Notes under the pieces: model-generated
What the model was told of the DNA's origin: nothing
The model's database searches: none
The model's input: the letters and a program-made list of their open reading frames with translations, nothing else
Translations under genes and position numbers: made by a program
Shown: piece by piece, positions 3,024 to 37,215 of the stretch
How the letters are laid out: each line of letters starts with the position of its first letter
Position numbering within the stretch: the stretch's first letter is position 1
DNA from: a virus
Virus record (IMG/VR): IMGVR_UViG_3300017644_000080
Direction: 5' to 3' (one strand)
DNA length: 64,000 bases

Positions 3024-3817
3024 CGCTTCCCCCCTTGGAACTGGTAACGAGGATCATCCAGGTCGATGATGAGATCGAACTGATACTCGCGGTTCTCGTT
3101 CACATAACCACGAGGATTGACGACGATATGAGTGTCATGAACCTGGTAGTCGAACGAGTTATGGACGTGACCATGCAGGCACAGATGAGGCCTGTATTCG
3201 TAGATCAGGTCGTCGAGGTTCGAGACGAACGACGAATTCAACGGATCGCCAGCAAACCGTCTGTGCACCGACAGCGGGTGAACGCCATGGTGGGTCACCA
3301 GAACGGTCTTGCCGTCGAACGGTCGAGCCAGCGCTTCCTCGATGAAAGCCCGCGATGCGATGTGCATGTCGAGCAGATGCTTCGGCATCAGGCGGGTATA
3401 CGGCTCCTTCCGATATTTGATCTGGTTGAAGTCGTTCATCGAACCAAGGGCGGACATCATGCCCAAGCCTTGGTCGCCCATGAGCTTGTAATCGGTCCAT
3501 AGCGTCGCGCCAATGAATCGAACGCCGTCGATCACCACCTCGTCGTTTTCAAGGAAGTGAATGTTCGGATACTTCTTGGCAACCTCACGAGCCTCAGCCA
3601 AACCATCGACCAGCGAGCCACGATAATATTCGTGGTTGCCCGCGACATAGATCGTTGGAACGTTGATGTGCTTGGCAATCCATTCGATGCCGCGCGCTGG
3701 AGATTTATTGACCAGATCACCTGTGCACACGCACACGTCCACACCTTCTGGCACCTTAAATCGGTGCGAGATGTCGTCAAATTCCAGGTGCAGATCCGAT
3801 AGCGGCCACAGTTTCAT
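3020..3817 (-). CDS. calcineurin-like metallophosphoesterase (265 aa), paralog of 17188-17997
   Basis: N-terminal LSDLHLE (DxH), GDLV (GD), GNHEYY (GNHE), and C-terminal HGHVH motifs of the calcineurin-like phosphoesterase fold. Confidence 0.8.
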   Translation of the reverse strand: MKLWPLSDLHLEFDDISHRFKVPEGVDVCVCTGDLVNKSPARGIEWIAKHINVPTIYVAGNHEYYRGSLVDGLAEAREVAKKYPNIHFLENDEVVIDGVRFIGATLWTDYKLMGDQGLGMMSALGSMNDFNQIKYRKEPYTRLMPKHLLDMHIASRAFIEEALARPFDGKTVLVTHHGVHPLSVHRRFAGDPLNSSFVSNLDDLIYEYRPHLCLHGHVHNSFDYQVHDTHIVVNPRGYVNENREYQFDLIIDLDDPRYQFQGGKR

Positions 3818-13976: not shown

Positions 13977-14540
13977 CTAATTATTGTCAATATTTTTTTG
14001 GCTACTGGAAATAGCAATAGAAAATCTCGGTTCCGCGATCCCCGTTCCGCAGGTCCACTCGTAACCCTTATATTTACGCGAGCTATATGAACCCACTTCG
14101 ACGCCGTCTATCTCAAGATCGTAGCCAATTCCAGTCGGAACGATGTCAGGAGATATTCCGGAAATTTCCGTCATAAATGTTCGAGCATCGAGAGCAATCT
14201 CGAAATCCCTGCCATCGTAGGCATTCGTATCAAACAGCTCGACCTTCATGAAATATGGATGATGCGTAGCGTCAAAAACAGGTTCCTTGCGGAAACAAGG
14301 CGTCAGAGACACGAACTTCCCCTGCCCCAGTGTGCCGTTCATCAGGGCATCGACAAACGACTGTTCCGCAGACCCGACCAAAAGACCAAGATCGCGCAGT
14401 TCATAGGCGCGGCCGAGATCATCCAGTGTCGACTGAATACCGTCAAGGCTCGCATGCCACGGGAGATTTACCCTCTTGTAGTCCCGCGCCTCATACCATT
14501 GAAGCGCGGCGACAAGATATTCCCAATTAACGGCGACCAT
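13977..14540 (-). CDS. mini class-II aminoacyl-tRNA-synthetase-like catalytic core (SerRS-like), ~187 aa
   Basis: LTPCFRKEP...HHPYFMKVELF resembles SerRS motif 2 (TPCFRSEAGS...HQFNKVELV, as in the SerRS in this same window); GTGIAEPRFSIAI resembles motif 3 (GSGVAVGRLLIAI); start taken at the internal Met MVAVN that overlaps the upstream gene's stop by 14 nt; the 54-codon N-terminal extension in the ORF track is read-through of the upstream gene. Confidence 0.4.
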   Translation of the reverse strand: MVAVNWEYLVAALQWYEARDYKRVNLPWHASLDGIQSTLDDLGRAYELRDLGLLVGSAEQSFVDALMNGTLGQGKFVSLTPCFRKEPVFDATHHPYFMKVELFDTNAYDGRDFEIALDARTFMTEISGISPDIVPTGIGYDLEIDGVEVGSYSSRKYKGYEWTCGTGIAEPRFSIAISSSQKNIDNN

Positions 14541-15345
14541 TCGCAAATGCCCTCGCAGTGACCGCTGCCATCTCGCGCAGGCTCTGAAGCGAGATCGATG
14601 GATGATGCTTATCGAGATAGGCTTCAATAGCGCCCTGAAGATCAGCCAGCTCCACCAGAGCCATGATATCCACGCCCTGATTGATCGCATCCATGAACTC
14701 ATTGACCTCTTCCATGATCTTCGAAGGCTCGCCTAGAACGCCCTTCTCGATCTCGGCCAGGTGATATCCCGGCTTCGACTTCTTCGGCAGGAGGTCAGTG
14801 ATGTAATCCCAAAGGGTGTCAGCATCGATCTTGCGCTCGAACGGACAAATAGACGGACCATTCACTTCGCGAATGACGTTCGCCAGATCCTTGATGATCG
14901 GGCCGCGCTCCAGATAGGTGATCGCCTTCGTGGCACGGATGCGGTGGAAACCAGTTTCAGCGAACTCGTAACTGGTGCCAGCGCTCATGTGATAGGTGCT
15001 GCCCTGACGCAGGAAGCCGCGTGCTACCGGAACAGGGTCTTTGCTATCGCCAGGCTTACAGGACACCTGAACGATCTCGTGGTCGCCTTCAGGCGAGTTT
15101 TCCAGAAACCACTCTTCATGGGTGATGTTGCCGAGGAGAATATGAGAGTGGAACCGATATCGATGATCGTGGAGTTCCTCTTCCGGCGTGTCGGCCAGCA
15201 ACTCAGGATGCCAGAAGTGAATTCGGGTGTCCTTGGTGAGTTTCAGCTGGATAAATCCGAGACCGAACCAGTGTGGTGAGGATCCGAAAGAACGCAGGTA
15301 GTCGACGTCCAGAAATTGATCCAGACGGCCGTTAAAAATGCCCAT
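14527..15345 (-). CDS. two-domain protein: N-terminal His-rich domain of unknown function + C-terminal MazG-like NTP pyrophosphohydrolase domain (272 aa)
   Basis: C-terminal EEVNEFMDAI ... ELADLQGAIEAY matches the all-alpha MazG/HisE pyrophosphohydrolase signature; N-terminal HFWHP...HDHRYRFHSH cluster suggests a metal site (cupin or oxygenase-like?) but no family recognised. Confidence 0.55.
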   Translation of the reverse strand: MGIFNGRLDQFLDVDYLRSFGSSPHWFGLGFIQLKLTKDTRIHFWHPELLADTPEEELHDHRYRFHSHILLGNITHEEWFLENSPEGDHEIVQVSCKPGDSKDPVPVARGFLRQGSTYHMSAGTSYEFAETGFHRIRATKAITYLERGPIIKDLANVIREVNGPSICPFERKIDADTLWDYITDLLPKKSKPGYHLAEIEKGVLGEPSKIMEEVNEFMDAINQGVDIMALVELADLQGAIEAYLDKHHPSISLQSLREMAAVTARAFANGRR

Positions 15346-17187: not shown

Positions 17188-17997
17188 TCAGATTTCGATT
17201 ACTTTTCCGAACTCGAACCCTTCATTTTCAATGGCATAGCCGCGTGGATTGCAGACAATGCGTGTCTTGCCTACCATATAATCAAACTGCTGATGCACAT
17301 GACCATGCACCCAAAGATCAGGCTGTCGCCTCTCGATTAAATCCGACAAATCGGACACGAACGCCCCATTGGTAGCGTCACCTTCGAACTTCGGGTGAAG
17401 CGATTTCCGATGCGGAGCATGATGGCTCACCACAACTGTTTTGCCATCGTGCGGAACAGCCAAGGTGTCGTCGATGAAAGCCCTCGTTTCCTGATGCAGC
17501 TGCACGAGGTCAGCAGGCCTGATGTGACGTGGGATAACCCCGTCCCCTTTGGGTGTCTGCAGGTAGATGTTGACGTAGTCTGCCAACCCATTCTTTGCGG
17601 CCCACATGGCGCTCTTGATCGCGGTCTCACGCTCATCTCCAGAGGCTGGAGCATCGATTGCGAAGTCCGTCCACAACGTACCGCCCAGGAAACGCACACC
17701 ATCGATAACTGCGGCGCTATTGTCGAGGAAGGTCACACCCTGCGCGTTTGCGATGAGCTTGGCGTTCTTGCGGCCGCCTTCGATAGATGTGTCATAGAAC
17801 TCGTGATTGCCAGGCACCCAAACAACAGGCATTCGAGGCCGGATTACGTTGCCAACCCAATTGACCCCTAGATGCATGGAATCTGTGACGTCGCCAGCCA
17901 ACACGCAAACATCGGCTTGCGGGTATCGATCCGGCTTCACGAGCTTAATCGCATCGCTCTCGGGAATATGTAAGTCGGACAAAATCCAAATACGCAT
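17188..17997 (-). CDS. calcineurin-like metallophosphoesterase (269 aa), paralog of 3020-3817
   Basis: ILSDLHIPE, AGDVTD, PGNHEFY, HGHVH motifs; N-terminus MRIWILSDLH closely parallels MKLWPLSDLH of the first copy. Confidence 0.8.
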   Translation of the reverse strand: MRIWILSDLHIPESDAIKLVKPDRYPQADVCVLAGDVTDSMHLGVNWVGNVIRPRMPVVWVPGNHEFYDTSIEGGRKNAKLIANAQGVTFLDNSAAVIDGVRFLGGTLWTDFAIDAPASGDERETAIKSAMWAAKNGLADYVNIYLQTPKGDGVIPRHIRPADLVQLHQETRAFIDDTLAVPHDGKTVVVSHHAPHRKSLHPKFEGDATNGAFVSDLSDLIERRQPDLWVHGHVHQQFDYMVGKTRIVCNPRGYAIENEGFEFGKVIEI

Positions 17998-18073
17998 TCG
18001 TTATGCATACTCGGCTGATGATCTGCCGTCAATCATTCAAAAAAAAATACGAAAATAATGTTGACAATTAATT

Positions 18074-19738
18074 ATGAGAAAAATAAACAGGCCGCAACAA
18101 AAGGGATTTTTCATGAGCTTTCCAGTCCCAACCTCCATCTTGTATGGCCTCAAGCACGTGGATTTTGCCAAATCGCAAACCCATTATTCCTACTGGAAAA
18201 ATGATCCAGATAAGGAAATCAAGATCGATCTTTCGAAGTTGTCCGACGATGCGGTCTATGAGCTTTCTGCGGCCTTTAAGCAGGCTGACATCATGCGCAA
18301 CGTGCGGATGCTGGATTCGATCCTTGAAAGCCGCCTTGGAAAAAAGGATCAGACGGTAAGGGGGCTGGAAAGTCTCGTCGATCTCCTGAAGAGCTATCTG
18401 GAAGACGGTCAAATTAATAAATGGATTTTCCGCCGAGAAAAAGATGGCCAGCTTTACCCCTATCTCGTGACGAGAATCCAGATGTGCGACACTGAAAATT
18501 CCCGCCAGAAGGACAAGGAAGATCACTTCGTCGCCATGCGCATCGTCGCCTATGGGATTTCAGAAAGAAATGGAAAGATGGAGACCAAAACGGATACGAT
18601 TTCGTTTTATCGCCATCAGGTCTCCAATCGCAGAATTTCCAAAATCCTCTCTGATTCTGATCTGTTCAAGGAAACCAAGGAGCTGATCGCTGAGCACGAA
18701 GCTCAGGTGGCGCGCTACCGTGAGATTATCATGCCTGGATTCGCAAAACAGTTTGTAGCCAATGGCAGGACTGTAAGGATCGGATACGGTGGCAAGGACA
18801 TCACCCTGAACAAAGCTCGTGTCATCCATGACCTGTCGTCGAGCGATTTTGGCGCGTACAATGATATGATGGATGCCGAAACAAAGACCGATGACATCGG
18901 AGAATTTCCGTGCCCTATGCACCCAATGGTCAGGGTCTTCGATCTCGAAGGGCACGACTTCCATTGGATTAATGGCAGCTTGGTTGAGCCATACGTCTAC
19001 AAAGACCTGCTCAAGCATCTGGTTCTGCCAGAATCCCATCACGATCTTCTCGACATGCTGACCGACGATCTGACTGACTTCTCGCATGACTTTGTCGAAG
19101 GCAAAACCGCTGGCAACCTGATCATTTGCAAAGGCCCTCCCGGTGTCGGTAAGACTCTTACTGGCGAACTCTATTCCGAGCACAAGAAGGTTCCTCTGAT
19201 CGTGCTCAGGGCCGGAAAACTCGGTACCACGGTTGCGGAAGTCACCAAGGGTATGAAGCAATATCTGGAGTGGGCCGCAAGGTGGGGTTGCCCGCTACTC
19301 GTCAATGAATGCGACATCTACATCGCCAAACGCGGCGACAATATCAATCTGAATGCAATCGTCGCCGAAATGCTCCAACTGGTGGAATATTATCCAGGCC
19401 TTCTGTTCATGACGACCAACCGTCCCGACGATATCGACGATGCATTCGTCAGTCGCGCCTTGGCGATCATCGATTACGAGGCTCCGAAGGGTGATCTCGT
19501 TGCCGAAAGTTGGCGGCAGATTGCCTCCCTTCATGGGTTGAAAATGGATGGCAAGATGATCAAGAAGCTTCAGCAGCTCTTCCCGTCAATTGTCCCGCGC
19601 GACATGAAAATGCTGTTGAAGCTGGCCATGAAGAGGACTAAGCGCACAGGAGAAAAGATTTCGCCCGACCTGTTGCGCAAAATGGCCATGTTCCGTGCCA
19701 TCAAGATGTCCGAGAATGCCGCCGACTTGCTTAACTAA
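18074..19738 (+). CDS. AAA+ ATPase with ~340-aa N-terminal domain of unknown function (554 aa)
   Basis: Walker A ICKGPPGVGKT; Walker B LLVNECDIY; sensor-1 region FMTTNRPDDIDDAFVSR typical of classic-clade AAA proteins; divergent from the metallophosphoesterase at 17188-17997. Confidence 0.85.
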   Translation: MRKINRPQQKGFFMSFPVPTSILYGLKHVDFAKSQTHYSYWKNDPDKEIKIDLSKLSDDAVYELSAAFKQADIMRNVRMLDSILESRLGKKDQTVRGLESLVDLLKSYLEDGQINKWIFRREKDGQLYPYLVTRIQMCDTENSRQKDKEDHFVAMRIVAYGISERNGKMETKTDTISFYRHQVSNRRISKILSDSDLFKETKELIAEHEAQVARYREIIMPGFAKQFVANGRTVRIGYGGKDITLNKARVIHDLSSSDFGAYNDMMDAETKTDDIGEFPCPMHPMVRVFDLEGHDFHWINGSLVEPYVYKDLLKHLVLPESHHDLLDMLTDDLTDFSHDFVEGKTAGNLIICKGPPGVGKTLTGELYSEHKKVPLIVLRAGKLGTTVAEVTKGMKQYLEWAARWGCPLLVNECDIYIAKRGDNINLNAIVAEMLQLVEYYPGLLFMTTNRPDDIDDAFVSRALAIIDYEAPKGDLVAESWRQIASLHGLKMDGKMIKKLQQLFPSIVPRDMKMLLKLAMKRTKRTGEKISPDLLRKMAMFRAIKMSENAADLLN

Positions 19739-19761
19739 GCAGGCATTCACAAAGAGAATAC

Positions 19762-19797
19762 ATATCGGCCGTCAGCACAAATGTTGGCGGCCGATAT
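19762..19797. repeat. perfect 10-bp inverted repeat with 16-nt spacer (hairpin, possible terminator or regulatory site)
   Basis: ATATCGGCCG ... CGGCCGATAT located 24 nt after the AAA+ stop; T-tract downstream is weak. Confidence 0.5.
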
Positions 19798-19858
19798 TCG
19801 TAATAAATCGCAAATTTGTTTCTTTAATTCGAATTGACGACTGATTTTCGCTTGCGAA

Positions 19859-21127
19859 TTGATCCAGGAAAACGGTATTATAGAGCCTCAAATTATGAGG
19901 TTAAAATTGGCCAAGCTCCCAACTTTTAAGACGAAAGCCACAGACGTGCACGGAAATTTCGTCTGCGACATCAACATGGATGGTGTCCTTCTAAGTTTTG
20001 ATAGCCGACGCGCTCTTGTTGTGCTTGAAAAGTTGGCAAACGGACAGACTGATTACGGGCATCTACCCATCTACAAGGGTATGCCACGTCATCATCTTGA
20101 GGGCATCATCAATAGCGCCACTTCGGCTGATCTATACGAAAACGACCTTCATTCCGACGCAAAGACATTTTTTGAACAGATCGGCGGAAGCGCGGGTTTC
20201 CGCCAGTTTACTGAATTGAATAGTTACCGAGAGCGGCTGGAGAGGAAAAAAGACCGCATTTTCCGAGAAATGGTCGATGTCAACGCCGCCACTTTTGTGC
20301 TTGCTCCCGCATCCAAGAACGAGCTGCTTTATGACGCCTTCAGTGAAAAATTTGCCGATGTCGAGACCTTGCTTATGCAATACAGCATGCCCAAGGACAT
20401 CTTTGAAATGGGCGACAACGCCGACCGGCACAAAGCCTTTGAGAAATGGGTTCGAGAGAACGGACGCCCTTATGCGTGGGACACAATTCGCGATGACTGG
20501 AAGGGCCTTACAGTCGATGACGTTCTAGGTTGCTGGGATGATATCTTTGACGAAGACGATGAAGACGCAGACCCTTCGGACAGAAGCCTGCTCGCCGAAC
20601 TCATTTCAGAGGTGAAGGCCACCATCGAATGTCAACTCGATAGCGATCATTATGAAGATGCCTGTCACGACGTCGTGGATATCGATGGAATCGATGGCAT
20701 TGTCACGGCCTGGTTCGACGAAAAGGGCGACCTCAGACAGAACGACGACGGCAAACTGATGGCGGACCAGAACCTCAAGAATCGACTGGCGAATTGGGGC
20801 GAAAAGCAGTCCATCACATCATACCATCGAGATTCGAGCACGGTCGTGGGCTTGCATCCCGATGTGACCGAAGCTGAATGCAAACAGTTTCTGGAACGCG
20901 AATTCTCTGGCGTATGTATCGAAATCGACAAAGTCGAGAATATGTGGCGTTTGCCGCTTTCGGAAGGTGTGCAAGCGCTTGCTGAGAAGCTTGAGCCGCT
21001 CGGCATCTGGCTAACTAATGGGCCATATGACCAGAACTATCGGATCAGGTCGACACCAGCCGATCTGGATGCAGAGTTCCCAACCTTGGAGCTGGCCTTC
21101 GAATTCGCCCAGGAGCTTGTTCGATGA
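19859..21127 (+). CDS. acidic hypothetical protein (422 aa)
   Basis: First gene of a five-gene block with overlapping stops and starts; Asp/Glu-rich; no motif recognised. Confidence 0.5.
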   Translation: MIQENGIIEPQIMRLKLAKLPTFKTKATDVHGNFVCDINMDGVLLSFDSRRALVVLEKLANGQTDYGHLPIYKGMPRHHLEGIINSATSADLYENDLHSDAKTFFEQIGGSAGFRQFTELNSYRERLERKKDRIFREMVDVNAATFVLAPASKNELLYDAFSEKFADVETLLMQYSMPKDIFEMGDNADRHKAFEKWVRENGRPYAWDTIRDDWKGLTVDDVLGCWDDIFDEDDEDADPSDRSLLAELISEVKATIECQLDSDHYEDACHDVVDIDGIDGIVTAWFDEKGDLRQNDDGKLMADQNLKNRLANWGEKQSITSYHRDSSTVVGLHPDVTEAECKQFLEREFSGVCIEIDKVENMWRLPLSEGVQALAEKLEPLGIWLTNGPYDQNYRIRSTPADLDAEFPTLELAFEFAQELVR

Positions 21128-21747
21128 GCTTCAACCTCCTACCGATTGAAGAGCAGTTTCCCGCCCTCCTTGCGCATCTGGACACCTTGACCGACGAAAA
21201 CCATCCAGAGGAGATGCGGCCGAGCTATCTCAGAAGGCTTGTGATGGAAGCTAGCCATCGCCCCGACCTTCCACGCGACAAGATTTGTCGTTGGCTCGGC
21301 TACTCCTACGGCATCGTCACGGCGAGGCATCCGAACCTGAGCCGGATTTTCTCCTTCAATGAACCAAAGTTCGGCGAAGATTTTTCAGACCACCCCATCG
21401 TCAAGGCGTCACTCCAGGTCCTCGGCAACCTACAATCCACCATGCTACGCAGGCAAAAATTAATGGCTTCTGACGGAGATCGTCATGACAGTCATTACAC
21501 CGAAGACAATGACCATGTCTCGAATTTAATAGAAAAACTCATCGAAGACGCGATGCGCGATGCAAAATACATCGGCGTAAATGCTCTTAGTCTTCGCGTG
21601 GGATTTATTCAGGGCTATATGGTATCATACTATTTTCTCGATGTGAGCGAAGAACGGAATTTCACCAGACCCATCTTCCATAAAGCATACGAGGAACTTG
21701 GCATTCGTCCGCCCAAAAGCGTGGCGATCAGCAAACGGGAGGCGTAA
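21124..21747 (+). CDS. hypothetical protein (207 aa)
   Basis: Start overlaps the upstream stop (ATGA) and stop overlaps the next start (TAATG): translational coupling. Confidence 0.5.
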   Translation: MSFNLLPIEEQFPALLAHLDTLTDENHPEEMRPSYLRRLVMEASHRPDLPRDKICRWLGYSYGIVTARHPNLSRIFSFNEPKFGEDFSDHPIVKASLQVLGNLQSTMLRRQKLMASDGDRHDSHYTEDNDHVSNLIEKLIEDAMRDAKYIGVNALSLRVGFIQGYMVSYYFLDVSEERNFTRPIFHKAYEELGIRPPKSVAISKREA

Positions 21748-22283
21748 TGGTCGTGCTCGACGCAAAAGCAGTTCAATCTTCATGTGAGGCGGCGCTCTCG
21801 AATTATTCGAAATGGGCAAACTCGGGCTTTTGGGCCAGCTTTTTCCAAGTCGATCTGAACCTCGCCCAGGAAAAAATTGAGAAGCTTCCTAGCGTACACG
21901 TTCGAGAGCAGATGTGCATTTCCCTGATCTCGGGCATTGAAACAGTGACGTCAGCGGAAATGAATAGCCGCCTGAGCTACATGGAAGCCGTGCTCAAGGA
22001 TATGAGAGAACGGGAATTGTCCCTTCTTGAGCGCTATTTTGCTTTGCGACGGGACGGCCTAAGCGCACTCTTCCTGGCCGCCATCTCGATGATGCTGATC
22101 GTCTTCATGATCGGAATGCAGCAAGACGCATTTGCGATTGCCGTATCGACCGTACTCCTCGTCACTGCCATCGGGTGTTTCATGATGGGCAGGAAATCGT
22201 TCAAAAATAAGTATCTCAACATCAAGCGCGAAGCCGGAAATCCCGGCAACCGCCAACGTTTTATCCTATGGGGCCAATCTTAA
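21747..22283 (+). CDS. N-terminal soluble domain + C-terminal two-TM hairpin protein (178 aa)
   Basis: Two hydrophobic helices LSALFLAAISMMLIVFMIGM / AFAIAVSTVLLVTAIGCFMMG at the C-terminus; translationally coupled to neighbours. Confidence 0.5.
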   Translation: MVVLDAKAVQSSCEAALSNYSKWANSGFWASFFQVDLNLAQEKIEKLPSVHVREQMCISLISGIETVTSAEMNSRLSYMEAVLKDMRERELSLLERYFALRRDGLSALFLAAISMMLIVFMIGMQQDAFAIAVSTVLLVTAIGCFMMGRKSFKNKYLNIKREAGNPGNRQRFILWGQS

Positions 22284-22813
22284 TGTCCGACCAGAAACCA
22301 ACAGTAAACACCGCAGACAAGATACTGGCGGACCTCGTAGCGTTTTCAAAAATGGGGTTCTCTACAGGGTATTTCCGTATCGACCGAGACATCGATTCAG
22401 CTGCATTGCCGAGCGAAAGGCTGCGCCGACAATACCTCGAATATGAAGCCAAGCACGGCCGTAGCACCGACAGCTATGAGGAAATAGAGCAAAGGCACCA
22501 ATACGTTCATGATATTGTAGCCCAACTTGAAACTCGTGAACGCGATCTCGTTGAAAAATTCAAGAAGAGCAAAAGAAAGGGCACTGACGCCTTTTTTGGA
22601 ACAGTCGTATTGACGTTCCTGATCGCAATCGTTGCCACCCAGTTCTTCGACGAAGAGAAGGAAGCCGCGTCGGCCGCTCTCAATGTTTTGTCTGTGCTGC
22701 CAATAATCTACATTCCGACCTATATTTTCATGAAGGTTCGCGCTAAGAAGCTCTACGAAAAGGCCCATACCCTCAGCAACCTGAGCTGGGTGTTCCCATG
22801 GAGCAAGAAGTAG
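22268..22813 (+). CDS. N-terminal soluble domain + C-terminal two-TM hairpin protein (181 aa), architectural paralog of the previous gene
   Basis: C-terminal helices FFGTVVLTFLIAIVATQFF / ALNVLSVLPIIYIPTYIFM; 16-nt overlap with the upstream gene. Confidence 0.5.
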   Translation: MGPILMSDQKPTVNTADKILADLVAFSKMGFSTGYFRIDRDIDSAALPSERLRRQYLEYEAKHGRSTDSYEEIEQRHQYVHDIVAQLETRERDLVEKFKKSKRKGTDAFFGTVVLTFLIAIVATQFFDEEKEAASAALNVLSVLPIIYIPTYIFMKVRAKKLYEKAHTLSNLSWVFPWSKK

Positions 22814-23082
22814 GTCTACCGCGAGGATACGTGACCAAGACTGACCGAACGAAAGAAGGCGTGAAGCGGCGGGTTTCACGCTTCCGCGAACGCGAAAAAG
22901 AACGTCACCTTCAGATCGCCCTTGCAGCTGCGAGGCTAGTCCTGGGCAAAGACGTCGGAGACGCACGCAGGGCGCTCGCTGATTTCATCGACAAGCAATC
23001 CAAGCAAACAGACATTCCCGACGACTACGCGTCCACCCTGATGGATGCCGCCGACGCTTTGCGTTCGAAACGGCGACTCTGA
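22798..23082 (+). CDS. small basic hypothetical protein (94 aa)
   Basis: Arg/Lys-rich N-terminal half (possible nucleic-acid binding); overlaps the upstream gene by 16 nt. Confidence 0.4.
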   Translation: MEQEVGLPRGYVTKTDRTKEGVKRRVSRFREREKERHLQIALAAARLVLGKDVGDARRALADFIDKQSKQTDIPDDYASTLMDAADALRSKRRL

Positions 23083-23199
23083 AGTCCATATTTGCTTTTT
23101 GGGGATATTCACTGCACAGCAAATATGCGTCTTTTAGCAAATATCGTTTGAGCCATTGTCCATTGCGCTTTTCAACTCGTAAAATGGCCATGATCAAGA

Positions 23200-24432
23200 A
23201 TGGAAGGCCATCAAATGTATTTTCTCACCGATCTGCGTAAATTGATCGACAACAGAACTTCTGTGCCGGAAGTCCAGAATGTTTTGGACAATATCCTGAC
23301 GGTCGCGACCGAGAGCAGCAAAAACTTCTATCTTGATCCAAACGAAGCAAAGCTCGTCGACGATGTGATCGACTGGGTGATTGCCGAGGCTCACAGCGGT
23401 AAAGAGTGGCCGTATACCAAAGGACGCAATGGTCTTCCAACACGACTCCAGGGCATCACCTGTGTCGAGGATCTGCGCATGGCACTTGCTGTGGCAGAGG
23501 CCGAGAACGGCGGCCTGTTCACCCTTCCAGACATGCCGGACTACGAGGATTACGTAACAGGCTTTCCGGATGGCGCTCATGTCGTGCGTCTAACAGCGAA
23601 CGAAGCTTACCGCCGCGAGATCATGAACATGAACAGCAATATTCGGTTCTGGGGGATTTTCGACAAAGACGACCTTGAGAACGGTAAGCGCAGCTACTGG
23701 TCCATCAGGGATGCTGACGGACATGTGCTAGCGGGCATCGCCCTCAATCGCTTTGCAATTTGCTCAGTAGCGGGTTTTAACGGCGTTATTGTCGATGAGG
23801 AGATCGTCAACAACTACATCCGGCCGTTGATCGAGGAGTTCGACCTGAAGGCGATGGAGCCTCTTGCCGTTCCTCACCTTGTCATGGACGCCAATGGCGA
23901 TTTCCATGACATCTACAATCTTCCAGACGGAATCACAGTCCACGGAAACATGATCCTTTATGACAATTATCCCAAGATCGCGTCCCTTCCTGACAACATG
24001 ACTATTCAAGGGCAGTTTGTGATTAACAGGAACATAAATCTCAGATCAACTCCGAAAAATCTCGTGGCGACCGATGGAATTGGTTTCATCAAATGCCCAA
24101 ATTTGACCGAGATCGGAGAGGGCAACAGCTCTACCAATAATTACAGTTCCTTCGACGGCAGCCCAATCAAGGCAATAGGCAAAGACTGCTATTTCCCAGA
24201 GGGCGTGGTTATCAACGGACAGATGAGAAAGGATGCACCTCAGACGAGCCTTCTCAAAAAGATATCGGATGCCTTCCGCGCCAAGCCAGCTCGGCGCTCT
24301 TTGGTGGATATTATTCGTCAGGTCAACGAAGACGAAACCAAGCGCATTACGGCCATTCAGGACTACATGGACGATGAGCTGCAAACGCGCGATTTCCCAG
24401 GCATGGAACGCGAAAACACGTTAAGAATTTAA
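23200..24432 (+). CDS. hypothetical protein (410 aa)
   Basis: Long ORF 117 nt after the coupled block; the C-terminal half carries degenerate short repeats (LPDGITVHGNM / LPDNMTIQGQF / ...); no family recognised. Confidence 0.5.
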   Translation: MEGHQMYFLTDLRKLIDNRTSVPEVQNVLDNILTVATESSKNFYLDPNEAKLVDDVIDWVIAEAHSGKEWPYTKGRNGLPTRLQGITCVEDLRMALAVAEAENGGLFTLPDMPDYEDYVTGFPDGAHVVRLTANEAYRREIMNMNSNIRFWGIFDKDDLENGKRSYWSIRDADGHVLAGIALNRFAICSVAGFNGVIVDEEIVNNYIRPLIEEFDLKAMEPLAVPHLVMDANGDFHDIYNLPDGITVHGNMILYDNYPKIASLPDNMTIQGQFVINRNINLRSTPKNLVATDGIGFIKCPNLTEIGEGNSSTNNYSSFDGSPIKAIGKDCYFPEGVVINGQMRKDAPQTSLLKKISDAFRAKPARRSLVDIIRQVNEDETKRITAIQDYMDDELQTRDFPGMERENTLRI

Positions 24433-24453: not shown

Positions 24454-24819
24454 TCACTTTCCGAAGGTATCAATCAGGGCCTGACAACTCGCATCATGGT
24501 CGTTCTTCAACGAGTCCGCTCCACGCTCTTCGACCTGCAGGTTGTATTCAACCAACTTCTGGACCACAAAATTCTGAGCGTCTTGTTCGGAAATATTCAG
24601 GGTTGAAGCCTCGAACATGAACTCGTCTCCGAGAGTCGCCAGGACGTCTGCCGCAAATGGAGAAATGATGTTTTTTCCATCGAAACCATTCTTGATGGCT
24701 GTATATGCCATGCACTGGCCGAGCTTCTTGTATTGCGCGTCGTCAGCGGCACCGGCGACAGACGCTCCCGCAAGGAATGAAAAAGCGAAGGTAGACGCAA
24801 AAATCTTGGCGGTCTTCAT
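24454..24819 (-). CDS. small secreted protein (121 aa)
   Basis: Classical signal peptide MKTAKIFASTFAFSFLAGASVAGA followed by a hydrophilic domain. Confidence 0.5.
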   Translation of the reverse strand: MKTAKIFASTFAFSFLAGASVAGAADDAQYKKLGQCMAYTAIKNGFDGKNIISPFAADVLATLGDEFMFEASTLNISEQDAQNFVVQKLVEYNLQVEERGADSLKNDHDASCQALIDTFGK

Positions 24820-24963: not shown

Positions 24964-25497
24964 ATGACTCCCTATGATGATATGAAAAGAAAATACGACA
25001 GCGATGAAATTGTGTCGCAGCTTTCAGCTCCAATGAAAAAGTGGGCTAAAATGGGTTTTATGCGAGGATTCGCTGGTCTAAGAACCGAAGCCCTCCCCAA
25101 GGGCAAAATGGTACTGCCCTCAGCCGCATTCAATGAATTAGCTCAACAAACCATCAAGGAGGGCAATCCTACTGATGAAGAAATCCAAATCAGGAAGGCA
25201 TATGTAGCCGAGGTCGATCAGAAGCTTAGAGAAATGCAGGGCGAAGCAATCAATCGCCATTTTAAATTCGCGGCCATCGGCCAGTCCGTCGACATCATGA
25301 TGGCTATCGCCATCCTAGCTCTGGTCATCGGCTTGATAGTTCGCGTTGGAGCATATCATCCTTTAACGATGAGCCTGATCCTCCTGATGGCCGTAAAGCT
25401 CTTATTTGTTCGCCATAGTGCAAAGCGCGTCCTCAATATCGCGCAAGCTGCCTTCAAATCGAAAGCGGATCAGATCCGCCTGCCTTGGATGGTCTGA
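24964..25497 (+). CDS. N-terminal soluble domain + C-terminal two-TM hairpin protein (177 aa); third member of this architecture
   Basis: C-terminal helices SVDIMMAIAILALVIGLIV / LTMSLILLMAVKLLFV; same layout as 21747-22283 and 22268-22813. Confidence 0.45.
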   Translation: MTPYDDMKRKYDSDEIVSQLSAPMKKWAKMGFMRGFAGLRTEALPKGKMVLPSAAFNELAQQTIKEGNPTDEEIQIRKAYVAEVDQKLREMQGEAINRHFKFAAIGQSVDIMMAIAILALVIGLIVRVGAYHPLTMSLILLMAVKLLFVRHSAKRVLNIAQAAFKSKADQIRLPWMV

Positions 25498-25514: not shown

Positions 25515-26552
25515 TCAAGCCCAAGGGCCTGCATTGGCCCTTGCAGGCATTACAGGCGCTGCGGACGGCGCTCTGGCACCCGCATAAGTCATAAGCGACT
25601 TCACCCGTTTATCGATGGTCGGATGCGTCGAAAACAGATCGCCAGCAAAAGACCGAGCATTATCGAAGAACATGCCCCTAACTTCATTCGGCACGCCTTG
25701 AACATCAGAGCGACCGGAAATCTTCAGAAGAGCCGACACCATCGCGTCAGGGTTCTTGGTCATCCGAACAGCCTCAAGATCGGCCATGTATTCGCGGGTT
25801 CGCGACAGGGCAAGCTGCGTCATGACGGAGAGCACGCGCGTGACGATCAAGATCGTAAAAGCGATCAGGATCAGGATCAAAATCGCGGCTAAGCCGCCAC
25901 CCTTGTCGTTACCGCTCTTCTTGCTCGATGACGTTGAGCCTAGGGCACGAACGAGAATGTCGCCATTCCTGAACAAGAACTCCATGATCAACGTGAAGAT
26001 GCCCACGAAGACGCTGGCGATCACCATCAGACGCACGTCACCATGCTTGATGTGAGCAAGCTCATGCGCAAGCACGCCTTCCAGTTCATCCTTGTTCAGC
26101 TTGCGCATCAGCCCACGCGTGACCGCGACCATGTACTGGCGCTTTGTAAGGCCGGAGGCGAAAGCATTCATCGCATCGGTTTCGATGATGCTGAGCCTCG
26201 GCATCGGCATGCCTTTGGTGATGCAAAGGTTCTCCAGCAGATTGTAGAGTTCTGGCTCCTGCTTGCGGGATACGGACCTCGCACCCATGGCAAGATTGAT
26301 CAGTCGCACGTTCAGGAAGAACGCAATCACGAACCAGACTCCGACACCCATTACGACATAAGGAATGGTTGGAGGCAGAGCGTAGATGCCAGCCTCCAAG
26401 GCTTCCATAACGGGCATTCCTGCAAGCCCCAACTGAACGATGAGACCTGCATAGACGATCAGGGCCACGAACACAGGGAACATGGCGAGAAGGAACATCG
26501 ACTTAATACCGTTGTTCCAGATTTGGGTCTGACTGCCCGTTCCTTGGATCAT
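25515..26552 (-). CDS. htpX: M48-family zinc metalloprotease HtpX-like (345 aa)
   Basis: HELAHIKHGD (HExxH) and EYMADLEA motifs, four TM segments, typical HtpX length. Confidence 0.9.
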   Translation of the reverse strand: MIQGTGSQTQIWNNGIKSMFLLAMFPVFVALIVYAGLIVQLGLAGMPVMEALEAGIYALPPTIPYVVMGVGVWFVIAFFLNVRLINLAMGARSVSRKQEPELYNLLENLCITKGMPMPRLSIIETDAMNAFASGLTKRQYMVAVTRGLMRKLNKDELEGVLAHELAHIKHGDVRLMVIASVFVGIFTLIMEFLFRNGDILVRALGSTSSSKKSGNDKGGGLAAILILILIAFTILIVTRVLSVMTQLALSRTREYMADLEAVRMTKNPDAMVSALLKISGRSDVQGVPNEVRGMFFDNARSFAGDLFSTHPTIDKRVKSLMTYAGARAPSAAPVMPARANAGPWA

Positions 26553-26577
26553 TCAACTAGAACCTCTCTGGACCTAA

Positions 26578-27141
26578 TCAGAACTGAACCGTAGGGGCGC
26601 GCTCTTCCTGCTGACGAGCTTCGTCGGTCAGGGTGAACATCGTTTCAGCCTTGAAGCCGAACGCCGAAGCGTAGAGGACGGCCGGGAACACTTCGATGGC
26701 GCTGTTATATTCAGCGACAGAGCCGTTCAGGAAGCGACGGGAAGCGGCAACCTTGTTCTCAATGTCGGAGAGTTCGCGCTGGAGATCGAGGAAGCTCTGG
26801 TTAGCCTTCAGGTCAGGATAGGCTTCAGCCACAGCAAACAGCTTGCCGAGAGCGGCAGTCATCATGCCTTCAGCCTGAGCAACACCACCTGGCGAAGTAG
26901 CACCATTGGCGGCTGCACGAGCCTTCAGAACGGCTTCGAGGGTATCCTTCTCGTGTGCAGCGTAGCCTTTGACAGTGTTGACCAGATTGCCGACCAGATC
27001 GCTACGAGCACGAATTTGAGCATCGATATCACTGGACGCCTGGCGAACGTTTTGGCGAAGGCGAACCAGACGATTGTAGCCGAAAATAAGAAACAGGCCG
27101 ATTACAGCCACGATAGCTAGCAAAATACCCAAAATTTCCAT
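26578..27141 (-). CDS. lemA: LemA-family protein (187 aa)
   Basis: N-terminal TM followed by the conserved LemA core (GYNRLVRLRQNV...); the classic LemA-HtpX gene pair. Confidence 0.85.
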   Translation of the reverse strand: MEILGILLAIVAVIGLFLIFGYNRLVRLRQNVRQASSDIDAQIRARSDLVGNLVNTVKGYAAHEKDTLEAVLKARAAANGATSPGGVAQAEGMMTAALGKLFAVAEAYPDLKANQSFLDLQRELSDIENKVAASRRFLNGSVAEYNSAIEVFPAVLYASAFGFKAETMFTLTDEARQQEERAPTVQF

Positions 27142-32590: not shown

Positions 32591-32741
32591 ATGCTCCACG
32601 GCAAAGAATGCCCGATAATTAATCCTCATTCCTTATTTTTGGCGAGACTTTTCCATTTAAATAAGTTAGACAATCTCACCTTTTAATTCGAATAAAGGTT
32701 TGTCGGAAGGAGCGGCCTCGTTTGCCGAGGCAATTTACGTC

Positions 32742-34874
32742 ATGGAAAAATCGAAGCGAGTTCTATTTCTAATGGAAAAATGGCAGGAGCGCGTGATGGA
32801 GCGTTCCAACGACGACCATTCCAGGACAGAAGATTTCAAAGGCGTTGAAAGCCTGGTTTCGTTCGACCCGACTCCTCGACATGAATATCTCGACTGGATT
32901 TGCCGAACCTATGTCGGCCAATCATTCCTGCTTGAAGATGCCAGCCGCGTCTTCGACACCCTCACCGTTTTTCATCGCTACAAACACCGCCTGCCTGTCG
33001 CGCAACGTGACATTGGCCTTCTCAAAAGCGAACAGGATCTATGGGAGCTTGTGGAGCGCTTCACTCCTCAGAATGGGGAGGAAGAACCAGCTGAAGGCAA
33101 GGAGCTGAAGCGACAGGAAAAGGCAAAGGCGCTGAGCGAAAGCGACATCCTCGAAAGCGAGGACCTCGATGGCTGGACGGTCGCTAGCCCGAAAACCCAT
33201 TTTGCAGCACGCTGGTGGTCCAAAGGCACCCGCTGGTGTACGGGCATGAAGAAGCCTGCCTATTTCAACAACTATGTGCGAAGTGGTCCTCTACGCGTCT
33301 TTATTTCGCCATCGGGCGAGAAGCTCCAGGCACATGTAGCTACACTCACATTCTGCGATGCGGCCGACCGCAGACTCTCAAATAACGCGTTCCTCGATCA
33401 AATCCCCGCGCCTGCGCTCAAAATGCTGCAGGATGACGCAATTCGATCCATGGACAAGCTAGGCATTTTTTCAAGAATTCCAGCTCCGCTACGGTCTGAA
33501 TCCATGATCGAAAAAGCCAAACAGGAAGGTTTTGATCAAGCCGTTACGCTTGCCGAAAACTCAGACGGCTACTTGCTGAAATATCTTCCGTCCATGCTAT
33601 CGATGTGGGCATTCGGTCTGATTTCTGAGAATGAATTCGGGCGCGGTGGACAGCGAGCAGACGTCATCCTGATGCGGGCCGAGACAGTGCTCGCCCATTA
33701 TTACGACTCTTCTAATGGAGCCACGCTGTGCGATCAGATCAAGAACACGACGGACGTAGATTTTATCCGCAAGTGCGCGTCCAGCATGCTTTGCCTATGG
33801 GAGAGAAATAATAATTTCCCGAATAAATTCGTCAATGTCATCGGCAAAGCTTTTGCAGACGAATATTTCGATCAGGCGACGTGGGACGCATACTTCGCCA
33901 AGGCGGCAAAAAAGCTTCGTAACAACAATGATCTCACCATTCCGGTTGCCGAGCGTTACATTTCGGACGAAATGGCCGACGCCTTGGCGAAATACAATCT
34001 TCTGACCATCCTGCCTCAATCAATGATCACTCCTGAGCGTGTCGATATCTTCGTTGCAGACACACCTGAGAACATCAGCCGCGTTGCTTATCACGGTCAC
34101 GAGCACATGATTTCCGATGAAGCAATCGCAACTGCAGCTAAATGGAAGAAGGGCAAAGGTCTTGCCTATGTCCCATACGAGCGCTTGTCCCAGGAATTGT
34201 TCCATAGCGTCGTCAAAGAACATCCGACAGCCATCTATCACGCTGACCAACGTCATTTGACGCATGAGCTAATCGACTACGTCGTCTCGATTGTGCCTAG
34301 CGCGATCATCAACATTCCAGAACGTTTTGTGACAGAAGAACTGGTTCTTAAGGCGATCTCCATCAACGGTAGTCTGTTCCAGCAGCTGAATCAGAAATGG
34401 AAAACTCAAGCCGTCACTGAATTAGCGTTGCGTGTCTCTCCAAATGTCTTCGTCAACACAGATTGCTATCTAACCTATGAGCAATTCAGAAACGGCGTTG
34501 CCATCGTTGGTAGCTCTCTCTCGCGGGTTCCGCTGATTTATAGAACCATCGAAATGTGCGAAGCCGCATTGCTCGCTCACGTCGCTGACGCAGTCGCTCA
34601 TGTGCCGCCACGCGTACTTGCCGCCATTAAAGAGCGGCGAGATAGCAACCCCGACAGCCCTTTAAAGACGCACACTTCCGGCTGGAACCGTCCGCTTTCC
34701 AAGCGTTATGCGCCGAATGATCCTATCCATTCATTCTTTCCAGATGACGACACCGTTTTACCTGAACGTCTCCAGAAGTTGATGCACGCTGACAAAGTGA
34801 CCGCTATCAGCACTGATCCTGACGGTCTGCTCGCGAGACAGCTTGTAGATGCTCCTATGACGATGGCCATGTAG
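32742..34874 (+). CDS. large twin protein A: conserved N-terminal domain + DUF4116-like C-terminal repeats (~710 aa)
   Basis: About 40% identical over the N-terminal ~250 aa to the next gene (RYKHRLPVAQRDIG..., DGWTVASPKTHFAARWWSKGTRWCTGMK...); the C-terminal region has repeated ~35-aa units; start set at the Met matching the paralog's N-terminus. Confidence 0.6.
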   Translation: MEKSKRVLFLMEKWQERVMERSNDDHSRTEDFKGVESLVSFDPTPRHEYLDWICRTYVGQSFLLEDASRVFDTLTVFHRYKHRLPVAQRDIGLLKSEQDLWELVERFTPQNGEEEPAEGKELKRQEKAKALSESDILESEDLDGWTVASPKTHFAARWWSKGTRWCTGMKKPAYFNNYVRSGPLRVFISPSGEKLQAHVATLTFCDAADRRLSNNAFLDQIPAPALKMLQDDAIRSMDKLGIFSRIPAPLRSESMIEKAKQEGFDQAVTLAENSDGYLLKYLPSMLSMWAFGLISENEFGRGGQRADVILMRAETVLAHYYDSSNGATLCDQIKNTTDVDFIRKCASSMLCLWERNNNFPNKFVNVIGKAFADEYFDQATWDAYFAKAAKKLRNNNDLTIPVAERYISDEMADALAKYNLLTILPQSMITPERVDIFVADTPENISRVAYHGHEHMISDEAIATAAKWKKGKGLAYVPYERLSQELFHSVVKEHPTAIYHADQRHLTHELIDYVVSIVPSAIINIPERFVTEELVLKAISINGSLFQQLNQKWKTQAVTELALRVSPNVFVNTDCYLTYEQFRNGVAIVGSSLSRVPLIYRTIEMCEAALLAHVADAVAHVPPRVLAAIKERRDSNPDSPLKTHTSGWNRPLSKRYAPNDPIHSFFPDDDTVLPERLQKLMHADKVTAISTDPDGLLARQLVDAPMTMAM

Positions 34875-34950: not shown

Positions 34951-37215
34951 ATGGCAATTACACCGAGACTGCTCTTCCTCAAGAAAAAATGGGACGAGCG
35001 CCTAGTCGAAAGGCAGGCGAAGGATAGCTCGCATCCACAGGACGTCAATCCGATGGACTTCCTGATCGATATCGATCCAACGAAGAAGCGTGAATACACT
35101 GACTGGCTATGCCGCACATATGTCTCGGGTAATTTTCGCTACGAGGATCGTGACCGCGTAAAGGTCACACTCGAACTCTTCAATCGCTACAAACACCGCC
35201 TCCCAGTCGAACAGCGAGACATCGGCCGCATGAAGACGGAACAGGATGTCTGGGCCATCGTCGAGGGCTTTCTGCCGAAGGAAGACAATGAAGATTCAAC
35301 GCCTGGTGGACGCGAGAAGAAACGCCACGAGCGCGCAAAGGCAATGGCAGAGAGTGATCTCGTTGATAGTGAACTGAGCGACGGCTGGATTATCGCTTCG
35401 CCAAATACACACTTCGCTTCCCGATGGTGGGGCAGAGGTACGCGATGGTGCACCGCCATGAAAACACCCGAGCACTACGACGCCTATATGGAAACCAGCC
35501 CTCTACGCATATTCATCACACCTGAAGGCAAGAAGTTGCAGGCCCATATTTCTTCGATGACGATCTGTGATGATCGGGACGTCGCCTTGAACTTTTCCAT
35601 TATGGCGAAGACGCTGCCAGAAGCGGGGCTAGAACTCCTGAGACGAGATTTAGTTACGTGTTTCGAAAAGGCCGATATAAACCTTCTTGAAAATCCATCG
35701 GACACACCTGACGAAATACTGAACGAAGTCACTAAAAATGCCCTTCGTCAGAAATTGAAAACAATAGCAGATGTAGAAATGGCATCATCAAAGGACGGCT
35801 GGTCACTTAGAATGCTTGAGACAAAGTATTCCAAGTGGTTCCGTCATTTAAATGAAGGTGCAGACATACCACTGCAGAAGGGCACCGTTCGCCAAGACGG
35901 TAATATAATCTATCTCACAAAAAATGATAAAGTAACAAATGTGTTTCCTTTTCACAGCAGGGAACGGGACAAAGCAAGGACCGCCAAGCTCCTTGATGCA
36001 ATCGTTGCTACTAATGATCGAGAATTCATTGAGGCGTGCGCAGAAAACCTGATGGAAGCGTGGCTCGACAAAATGGTCGCATCAAATATTGTCAATCAGT
36101 TCATGGATAAATTTCCTGATGATTGCAAAAACGATAATTTCTGGCAGGCATACACGAAAGGGTTTGCAGCATACACCCGAAGTGCGGAGTTTGTATCACC
36201 TCCAGAAAAATACCTCACTGGAGAAGTTACGAAGCAAGTCGCAACATATAACCTGCCGAGAATTCCTCTCCATTTGATGTCCCGAGAAATCGTTGAAAAT
36301 GGTCTTTCAGGATCGGGAAGTGAAGGTAAAAGATTCGCAAAGGAGAACGATTTGTTCCGCTTCATGACGGAAAAGGAAATATTGAACTTTGCAACTCTCA
36401 CAAAAGGGGATGACGTCGAATATCTGCCAAATAAATACATAACGCCATTTTTTGCGGAAAGATTTGTCGAGCAGCGGCCAGCACATATTGGCCTGCTCGA
36501 TTTGGCTACGGAATACAAATCAACGGGCGTCAGCGTAATCACTGAGGATTTGTGTCTAAAAGCAATCGAACTATCTCAGGCGGCGATTAGCTCGATCCCA
36601 AGAAGGATGCTCACACCAGAAATGTGTCACCACGCCATTCAACATCACAGGTTCGCAATCAATGAAATCCCCGAGGTCATGCGGACGCCTGAGATGTACA
36701 TGGAAAGTATCGCAAAAGAGCCAGATACAATCTCTTATGTCCATAGCGATGCAATATTAATTCCGTATGATACGTTCTTGGCGGCGGTAACAAAAAGCTC
36801 AAGCCATCTTGGCATTGTCCCATTACCTTATCGTACAGTCGATATGTGCCAAGCAGCTTTATCTGAACTAAACGTGATAAATACAGACGTCTCGCACCCT
36901 GAAGCCATAGAAAACGTTAGAACTCAAAAAATTGAAGCCATCGCAAAGCACATTCCACCGAATGTCGCACGCCAGATTCCCGAAGTAAAAGCCATCATGG
37001 ATGCACGCCATTGGCAAGGCGATTTCTTGGCACGTAGTTACAGCAATGACCCATATATCCGAGAATTTGTACCTAGTGACGATATCCCCGATGCCCTTCC
37101 GCGCCTGTTTAAAGGTACGGCGAAAAAGGAATTTTCGAGCATGCCTGACAACGTCATCGAAATCATGGAAGAATTTGAGGCGATGCGTTTGAGTTCATCA
37201 CAAATGCATCCGTAG
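34951..37215 (+). CDS. large twin protein B, paralog of 32742-34874 (754 aa)
   Basis: RYKHRLPVEQRDIG, DGWIIASPNTHFASRWWGRGTRWCTAMK; C-terminal repeats of the form ...LTPEMCHHAIQHHRFAINEIPEVMRTPEMYMESIAKEPDTISYV... Confidence 0.6.
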   Translation: MAITPRLLFLKKKWDERLVERQAKDSSHPQDVNPMDFLIDIDPTKKREYTDWLCRTYVSGNFRYEDRDRVKVTLELFNRYKHRLPVEQRDIGRMKTEQDVWAIVEGFLPKEDNEDSTPGGREKKRHERAKAMAESDLVDSELSDGWIIASPNTHFASRWWGRGTRWCTAMKTPEHYDAYMETSPLRIFITPEGKKLQAHISSMTICDDRDVALNFSIMAKTLPEAGLELLRRDLVTCFEKADINLLENPSDTPDEILNEVTKNALRQKLKTIADVEMASSKDGWSLRMLETKYSKWFRHLNEGADIPLQKGTVRQDGNIIYLTKNDKVTNVFPFHSRERDKARTAKLLDAIVATNDREFIEACAENLMEAWLDKMVASNIVNQFMDKFPDDCKNDNFWQAYTKGFAAYTRSAEFVSPPEKYLTGEVTKQVATYNLPRIPLHLMSREIVENGLSGSGSEGKRFAKENDLFRFMTEKEILNFATLTKGDDVEYLPNKYITPFFAERFVEQRPAHIGLLDLATEYKSTGVSVITEDLCLKAIELSQAAISSIPRRMLTPEMCHHAIQHHRFAINEIPEVMRTPEMYMESIAKEPDTISYVHSDAILIPYDTFLAAVTKSSSHLGIVPLPYRTVDMCQAALSELNVINTDVSHPEAIENVRTQKIEAIAKHIPPNVARQIPEVKAIMDARHWQGDFLARSYSNDPYIREFVPSDDIPDALPRLFKGTAKKEFSSMPDNVIEIMEEFEAMRLSSSQMHP

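Follow-up and report, generated by a model that had tools for sequence, protein, structure and literature searches.

Does the AAA+ ATPase gene in the DNA studied here form one system with the genes around it, or have two independent units come to lie side by side? The DNA is a stretch of 64,000 nucleotides from the IMG/VR virus record IMGVR_UViG_3300017644_000080, the whole of which is called the window here. The region in question (17188-24432) contains the ATPase gene, a divergent gene for a calcineurin-like metallophosphoesterase (MPE) and a tightly packed block of downstream genes, named A to H, of which the last two lie just beyond it. An earlier reading made without database searches (the sequence-only reading) had treated the genes of this region as one ATPase-led cluster. 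Our analysis indicates that the region is probably a composite of two independent units, a solo ATPase inserted beside an older chromosomal operon.

The neighbourhoods of ATPase homologues were compared with the window by tblastn, in which 23 window proteins were searched against 88 ATPase-bearing loci (six close relatives of the window and 82 from outside this close clade). The ATPase was matched in 88 of the 88 loci. MPE and A to H, on the other hand, were matched in the six close relatives only, and none of MPE, A, B, C, D, E, F, G and H was found near the ATPase in the other 82. All-against-all clustering of the open reading frames (ORFs) within 7 kb of the ATPase yielded no neighbour family common to the clades; the largest true neighbour cluster comprised 19 loci, none of them from the window clade. 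The contexts of the homologues varied by replicon and included parAB, parB/dnaB, a Ref nuclease and the early region of phage AR9. Among plasmids and phages, megablast found no match to the 7.2-kb region.

The block was then followed in other lineages. C, D and H are proteins with two transmembrane segments (2TM), and the contigs of the 28 representatives of this 2TM family, together with the 1.32-Mb replicon L089, were scanned with profiles of every block gene. The window and its relatives L009 and L004 (guanine-cytosine (GC) content about 51%) share the order MPE (-), ATPase (+), A-B-C-D-E-F (+), G (-), H (+), HtpX (-) and LemA (-), and L104, L005 and L006 (45-50% GC) have the window order minus F. 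In L094 (43% GC), which is cut upstream of C, the order is C-D-E-F (+), G (-), H (+), HtpX (-), LemA (-) and RNase J (-). L092 (52% GC) has two MPE genes (-), B-C-E (+), G (-) and H (+), with RNase J farther on, and L096 (57% GC) has MPE (-), E (+), G (-) and H (+), followed at intervals by RNase J, DUF6384 and AddB. L099 (61% GC), cut after C, retains MPE (-) and B-C (+) behind other genes. L106 (63% GC) carries MPE (-), A, a fused B-C gene and E (+), G (-) and H (+), with RNase J and DsbB beyond. In L089 (63% GC), MPE stands apart from B-C-E (+), G (-) and H (+), and HtpX (-) and LemA (-) come later.

The ATPase profile gave no match at an expectation value (E) of 1e-2 or below in L089, L092, L096, L099 and L106. 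A 399-aa protein beside MPE in L106, where the ATPase is missing, is a homologue of A (hhalign probability 99.8%, E 3e-30), indicating that A belongs to the block and not to the ATPase. Moreover, of the five more distant lineages, four (L092, L096, L099 and L106) have MPE adjoining the block, and in L089 it lies about 3.7 kb off. The conservation of this arrangement marks MPE as the divergent partner of the block rather than of the ATPase. The sequence-only reading, in which the whole unit was paired divergently with the phosphoesterase, thus holds for the block but not for the ATPase.

The ATPase and the block are therefore evolutionarily separable in both directions. Because the ATPase occurs without the block and the block without the ATPase, the ATPase appears to be a lineage-specific insertion, which would have entered between MPE and A in a single sub-lineage comprising the relatives of 'Mesorhizobium sp. 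SP-1A'. The proposal that the cluster is led by the ATPase does not survive this comparison, with 82 loci carrying the ATPase family without these neighbours, five lineages carrying the block without the ATPase and a putative terminator between the two. Nor do the seven genes behave as a conserved neighbourhood, since the full set was never found together outside the close relatives.

The putative terminator is a 16-bp, intrinsic-terminator-like hairpin (19762-19797, +), which had been overlooked in the sequence-only reading. It lies directly 3' of the ATPase stop and has a centroid fold of -26.6 kcal/mol. The 92-nt segment containing it showed a minimum free energy of -28.5 kcal/mol (z = -5.0), and 0 of 200 shuffles were equally stable. 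In L005 and L006, another stem sequence followed by a T-run is present at the same place after the ATPase, as would be expected of a working intrinsic terminator. The conserved terminator-like hairpin suggests that the ATPase is a transcription unit of its own. Upstream, the divergent intergenic region (17998-18112) contains a TTGACA hexamer as well as AAGGG, a motif resembling a ribosome-binding site, ahead of the ATG at 18113, and we infer that it is a promoter region. The first unit would thus be a monocistronic ATPase gene with an upstream region and a terminator hairpin of its own.

The ATPase gene (18113-19738, +) encodes a classic-clade AAA+ protein consisting of a family-specific N-domain (residues about 1-300), a linker and an AAA module (about 335-541). 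It had been described as a 554-aa classic-clade ATPase with the Walker A motif GPPGVGKT and an N-terminal region that could not be placed. The motif and the unplaced region stand, whereas the length does not: the start is most likely at 18113, with AAGGG 8 nt upstream, giving 541 aa, and the relatives are 540-544 aa long. The protein is a chromosomal member of a known but uncharacterised plasmid/phage family, phrog_29662, which it matched over its full length including the N-domain (E 3.9e-71, residues 60-545 against profile positions 54-547 of 548). Across this family, W104, Q213, G218, D240, P268 and F276 of the N-domain are invariant. Homologues including the N-domain were found in at least 222 plasmid records, with 36-38% identity over 96-99% of the protein, in Pseudomonas, Providencia/Moellerella, Citrobacter and Xanthomonas. 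The Bacillus jumbo phages PBS1/AR9 also carry a homologue (31% identity over 88% of the ATPase). At least 319 protein clusters and 329 stretches in GTDB species genomes were counted, and the family appears to travel mainly on large plasmids, jumbo phages and integrated elements.

Some of these replicons have annotated surroundings. In the enterobacterial plasmids L001 (Providencia) and L100 (Citrobacter), the homologue lies in the backbone, with parA/parB on one side and a second parB plus dnaB on the other. In a Pseudomonas plasmid it comes after the Ref nuclease, and in phage AR9 (L101) it stands directly behind an annotated early promoter. The plasmid-backbone and AR9 early-promoter positions hint that the protein acts soon after entry or in maintaining the replicon. 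Two candidate links between this family and the block were tried and rejected. On the Providencia plasmid, the ATPase is followed by a 402-aa gene that proved not to be homologous to A (hhalign probability 0.1%), and a co-distribution of A and the ATPase, with six clusters each, was ruled out by the presence of A without the ATPase in L106.

The Pfam AAA family PF00004 matched the 554-aa ORF at residues 353-465 only (42.9 bits against a gathering threshold of 21.2). The Walker A motif, sensor 1 and the arginine of the second region of homology are invariant across the ATPase family. The Walker B motif, on the other hand, reads LLVNE in the window clade, with Asp replaced by Asn and Glu kept, versus LLLDE in most of the family. 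The Asn (19304-19309, residues 398-399 in the 541-aa numbering) is present in the window protein and in all four aligned close-clade sequences (P0001, P0003, P0005 and P0006), and P0100 acquired it independently. Its fixation in the whole clade suggests an altered ATP hydrolysis or function under selection. At the position of pore loop 1, an invariant G.LGT[TS] was found, and the aromatic residue for substrate threading is not present. Given the missing aromatic pore loop and the Walker B Asn, the ATPase may be a slow remodeller or a switch rather than a processive unfoldase. The AlphaFold2 model of the full-length protein was confident (predicted local distance difference test score 86). The protein would form a classic-clade AAA+ ring, whose N-domain of about 300 residues, predicted to include an SH3/KOW-like barrel, may recognise a partner or substrate.

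The second unit begins beyond the hairpin. All ORFs of the sequence-only reading were found at the coordinates it had given, and its tightly coupled block at 19.9-23.1 kb is real. Gene A (19895-21127, +) opens the coupled block and encodes an acidic cytoplasmic protein (isoelectric point (pI) 4.6). Its start is probably at 19895, giving 410 aa, the same length as P0121, to which it is 100% identical. B (21124-21747, +; 207 aa) overlaps the A stop with its start, and C (21747-22283, +) is an inner-membrane 2TM protein with a cytoplasmic N-domain of about 100 aa according to hydropathy and family alignments. The second 2TM paralogue, D, starts at 22283 (22283-22813, +) with a 1-nt TAATG overlap with C, its orthologues being 176 aa long. 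E, a basic 83-aa protein (22831-23082, +; pI 10.3), starts with the GTG at 22831 after a 17-nt gap behind D, and its orthologues have 82-83 aa. The A/B (ATGA) and B/C (TAATG) junctions were read from the sequence, and A, B, C and D are translationally coupled. Because the orthologue lengths move the D and E starts, the two 16-nt overlaps reported earlier turn out to be artefacts of longest-ORF calls and disappear with the corrected starts.

Downstream of E lie F (23200-24432, +), an acidic 410-aa protein and variable member; G (24454-24819, -), a secreted protein of roughly 100 aa, which has a signal peptide and an invariant pair of cysteines; and H (24964-25497, +), the third 2TM paralogue and the best-conserved member. 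Convergent with H are an HtpX-type M48 peptidase and LemA (PF04011) (25515-27141, -), assigned from Pfam matches in relatives. G, H and the HtpX-LemA pair right after H had also been overlooked. E and G occur in every lineage with a contig covering their position, D occurs in the window clade and L094 only, and F is present in the window, L004, L009 and L094 and absent in L005, L006 and L104. MPE (17188-17997, -) was confirmed as a calcineurin-like phosphoesterase by Pfam Metallophos (PF00149; E 1e-16, 62.3 bits against a threshold of 21.5, profile positions 1-190 of 191) and by phrog_1649 (E 1e-52).

The block proteins are rare. In a word search of 5.8 billion proteins, A was found in 6 clusters only and the 2TM proteins in 11 clusters, and an exhaustive hidden Markov model search of 1.84 billion proteins returned the 28 representatives of the 2TM family. 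A metagenome scan seeded with H gave two loci, one of which was already known, and A had no tblastn match among plasmids. By hhalign, C, D and H are true paralogues (probability 96-98%; C-D 98%, C-H 98%), each with two hydrophobic helices flanked by basic residues. The paralogy and the C-terminal two-transmembrane hairpins described earlier for C and D are thus borne out, with hydrophobic segments near residues 104-150 in each. H shows 34-56% identity in L089, L092, L094 and L096. The alignment of B showed a conserved C-terminal motif, G.IQG...ER..TR...H.AY, and that of G showed invariant C36 and C112 and a hydrophobic N-terminus.

None of the components of the coupled block matched a Pfam, NCBIfam or PDB family or a PADLOC model, the sole weak exception being residues 123-190 of B, which matched the uncharacterised phrog_7775 (E 3e-14). 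In phages, homologues of this C-terminal domain stand alone, at a length of about 100 aa and with hypothetical genes around them, and gave no functional clue. Profile searches of A, B, E and F against the PDB found nothing below E 0.1, Pfam scans at E <= 1 yielded just noise for all sequences in the E and G alignments, and longer 2TM homologues had no Pfam match. The claim of an undescribed gene set is upheld for the coupled block, which is real and conserved.

A link between two of these proteins came from L106 (8001-8873) and L107 (7305-8177), which encode P0158, a 290-aa fusion of B and C. It matched the B profile at E 6e-31 and the 2TM profile over residues 132-288, and its 2TM domain is of the C type. 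By the Rosetta-stone argument, this natural fusion would mean that B and C interact physically. Together with the coupling of A to D and three paralogous N-in/C-in 2TM proteins, it suggests an inner-membrane complex, in which A and B would sit on the cytoplasmic side and the 2TM hairpins of C, D and H would serve as anchors. G may be its periplasmic part and E, which is small and basic, perhaps a regulator, and the block may be co-regulated with the divergent phosphoesterase. The second unit would then be an older, vertically inherited chromosomal operon, A-B-C-D-E followed by F, G and H and divergent from MPE, apparently confined to a rarely sampled alphaproteobacterial group.

Our best guess for the role of the block, held with low confidence, is envelope or membrane homeostasis, since HtpX, LemA, DsbB and Band-7 are frequent neighbours. 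In L094, L108 and the window clade, HtpX and LemA come directly after H; in L089, some 5.6 kb separates them from it. They are not beside the block in L092, L096 and L106 and are therefore frequent, not obligatory, neighbours. The block is rare and uncharacterised, and it is probably a membrane-associated operon. If the inner-membrane reading is true, a cytoplasmic A/B pair docked on 2TM paralogues, with a periplasmic disulfide-bonded partner, would represent a system restricted to a barely sampled alphaproteobacterial lineage. That MPE and A to H form a new inner-membrane system and that the ATPase is a maintenance or takeover factor of very large replicons is, taken jointly, a tentative proposal that we regard as possible rather than likely. 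Both halves are worth following, the ATPase as a widespread family typical of very large replicons and the block as a small orphan gene set in which the B-C fusion offers a concrete protein-interaction hypothesis.

Several points weigh against a composite of an inserted ATPase and an older membrane operon. No block member has a recognisable catalytic or binding domain, and the envelope role is drawn from neighbourhood and topology only. About seven lineages were sampled, and L094, the one nearest to the window clade, breaks off upstream of C. The conserved gene order could in part reflect shared ancestry rather than function. The hairpin in the window lacks a clean T-run. Moreover, every genome with the ATPase at this site also has the block, and a secondary functional link between the two, acquired in this clade, is possible.

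This last point leads to the alternative that survives best, although we consider it unlikely: the ATPase was acquired horizontally and in this clade has come to act together with the block, for example by extracting or remodelling the 2TM proteins or A, as Msp1, FtsH and Cdc48-type machines do. The exact MPE-A insertion site has been stably kept within the clade, in which identity falls to 68% for the ATPase and 56% for A, and the AAA domain is nearest to membrane- or substrate-remodelling members of the classic clade. The clade-wide Walker B substitution would also agree with such a change of function. However, the two are separate transcription units, and a transmembrane segment or known membrane-targeting element was not found in the ATPase, whose family also lacks the aromatic pore loop. 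Moreover, hundreds of replicons in which the family functions carry no block gene.

Beyond this locus, the window encodes AddAB, RNase J, seryl-tRNA synthetase (SerRS) and a subtilase autotransporter, and no tRNA or Rfam match was found in it. Block loci share with the window, in the same order, RNase J, DsbB, Band-7, DUF6384, AddB, EF-Tu and BamA, as well as CYTH, phrog_4806-like and phrog_6408-like genes. The synteny places the locus at a fixed chromosomal position among housekeeping genes, not in a variable island. A decayed prophage or integrated-plasmid remnant, in which the whole stretch at 10-29 kb would be mobile cargo with no cellular role, is therefore quite improbable. It would draw on matches to phrog_1649, 29662, 7775, 4806, 6408 and 4784 and on the frequency of MPE homologues in large phages and megaplasmids. 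On the other hand, structural phage genes, an integrase and tRNA genes were not found, and the gene order is kept across lineages 20% apart in GC, interleaved with EF-Tu, BamA, RNase J, DsbB and AddAB. Moreover, the GC content of the ATPase and block genes, overall and at third codon positions (GC3), matches that of their surroundings.

The host is a rarely sampled alphaproteobacterial lineage. By exact matches, the window lies on a metagenomic contig of 596.5 kb. The only named relative at 90% identity was 'Mesorhizobium sp. SP-1A' (L009, NZ_JAVXZD010000002.1), and the 90%-identity cluster of its SerRS has two members. The GC content of Mesorhizobium is typically about 62-63%. The 51% of L009 and the window is well below this value, and the genus label therefore looks doubtful.

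Further observations concern the phosphoesterase and its neighbours. Three calcineurin-like phosphoesterase genes lie in the 64-kb window (3020-3817, 17188-17997 and 50586-51542, all on the minus strand), and tandem or nearby MPE duplicates stand beside the block in L092 and L089. The stretch 13977-15345 (-) holds a gene matching phrog_4806, annotated as 'histidyl tRNA synthetase'-like (E 2e-40), and a two-part protein matching phrog_4784 and phrog_6408; both kinds of gene are syntenic with MPE in all related lineages. L089 is deposited as 'Rhizobium leguminosarum TP16 plasmid pRlX5' (NZ_CP140867.1, 1.32 Mb), is unannotated and has six MPE-like places. It was the single record among the 72,556 of PLSDB with an H homologue, and is possibly a chromid or else a replicon of some other organism. 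The Rhizobium plasmids L090 (10019-14535) and L091 (10028-14535) carry a different four-gene operon, adjacent to an N-6 DNA methylase. Its AAA-family ATPase gene (product about 660 aa) overlaps the gene for an MPE homologue, which shares 37-38% identity with MPE of the window, and two hypothetical genes come after these. The operon was considered as a relative of the window locus and rejected, since MPE alone matched and the ATPase gave no tblastn match; it looks like a separate, possibly defence-related module. Elsewhere in the window, two adjacent paralogues (32700-34874 and 34951-37215, both +; 724 and 754 aa) both matched one 686-aa gene of L094 (41% and 29% identity), with DUF4116 at sub-threshold level only.

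The sequence-only reading had likened the locus to ATPase/effector defence or abortive-infection modules. PADLOC matched the ATPase weakly to IetA (E 2e-12, residues 314-542) and to TRIP13 (E 7e-6 over about 50 residues), in both cases through the generic AAA domain, and MPE weakly to PDC-S10; ten flanking proteins gave no match. IetAS, a toxin-antitoxin and anti-phage system, consists by definition of an S8 protease toxin and an ATPase antitoxin (PMC13069673). The IetA models span 262-395 positions and have no counterpart of the 300-aa N-domain of the window ATPase, the NCBIfam IteA equivalog NF042959 scored 37.4 bits against a cutoff of 510, and no Peptidase_S8 match was found in the locus neighbours, the single S8 protein in the vicinity being a secreted autotransporter about 8 kb off. 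As for the Trip13/HORMA module of CBASS (cyclic-oligonucleotide-based anti-phage signalling systems), no HORMA or cyclase (CD-NTase) family was found in any neighbour. C also showed a sub-threshold match to Phage_holin_3_6 (17.5 bits against a cutoff of 28.4), with no match for D and H.

A single defence system, with an ATPase that senses infection and 2TM proteins or MPE as effectors, is thus very improbable, its layout being only superficially like ATPase-plus-effector systems, its matches sub-threshold or generic, the ATPase and the block separable both ways with a terminator-like hairpin between them, and the fixed position among housekeeping genes, in genomes of 43-63% GC, being accompanied by no flanking defence genes, integrase, tRNA border or variable presence. 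A tempting false positive is thereby removed, in that an ATPase, small membrane proteins and a phosphoesterase only look like a defence module here. Among cellular systems, the LemA-HtpX pair for membrane-protein quality control adjoins the block in some lineages and has no homology to A-H.

The ATPase of the composite locus can be compared with several known AAA+ proteins. Its AAA module resembles solved classic-clade modules in fold and has the Arg of the second region of homology. The nearest modules are those of p97/Cdc48 D2, NVL/Rix7, FtsH and Yta7, with Rix7 at E 1e-21 (profile positions 340-515) in the PDB profile search. The window protein differs from all of these in having a single AAA module, neither a double-psi-barrel N domain nor a protease domain, and G.LGT in place of an aromatic pore loop. 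BCS1-like AAA translocases have been reported in jumbo phages (PMC7824862); in the window ATPase, neither a BCS1 N-terminal domain nor a BCS1 module as the closest structure was found. AR9 gp082 and PBS1 gp276, annotated as 'ATP-dependent protease' or 'AAA family ATPase', have the same length and the same motifs as the window ATPase. The protease label is annotation only, and a protease domain was not found in the window ATPase. The 'ATP-binding protein' of large plasmids in Pseudomonas, Providencia, Citrobacter and Xanthomonas belongs to the same family and matches over its full length. Compared with these phage and plasmid members, the window ATPase is chromosomal and has Asn for the Walker B Asp.

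The N-domain model (18113-19042) had no whole-domain match in the PDB. In BFVD, however, it matched the N-terminal regions of AAA ATPases from giant viruses (Klosneuvirus, Terrestrivirus, Homavirus and Hyperionvirus), with Foldseek E values of 2e-7 to 2e-5, a probability of 1.0 and a query-normalised TM-score of about 0.46. The likeness is one of fold, at a sequence identity of only 12-15%, and the targets are predicted structures of uncharacterised proteins. These models suggest that the same ATPase architecture is present in megaplasmids, jumbo phages and Nucleocytoviricota. If so, an N-domain fold recurring in jumbo phages, megaplasmids and giant eukaryotic viruses could mark an unrecognised maintenance or takeover factor of very large replicons, of which the window ATPase is a chromosomal representative.

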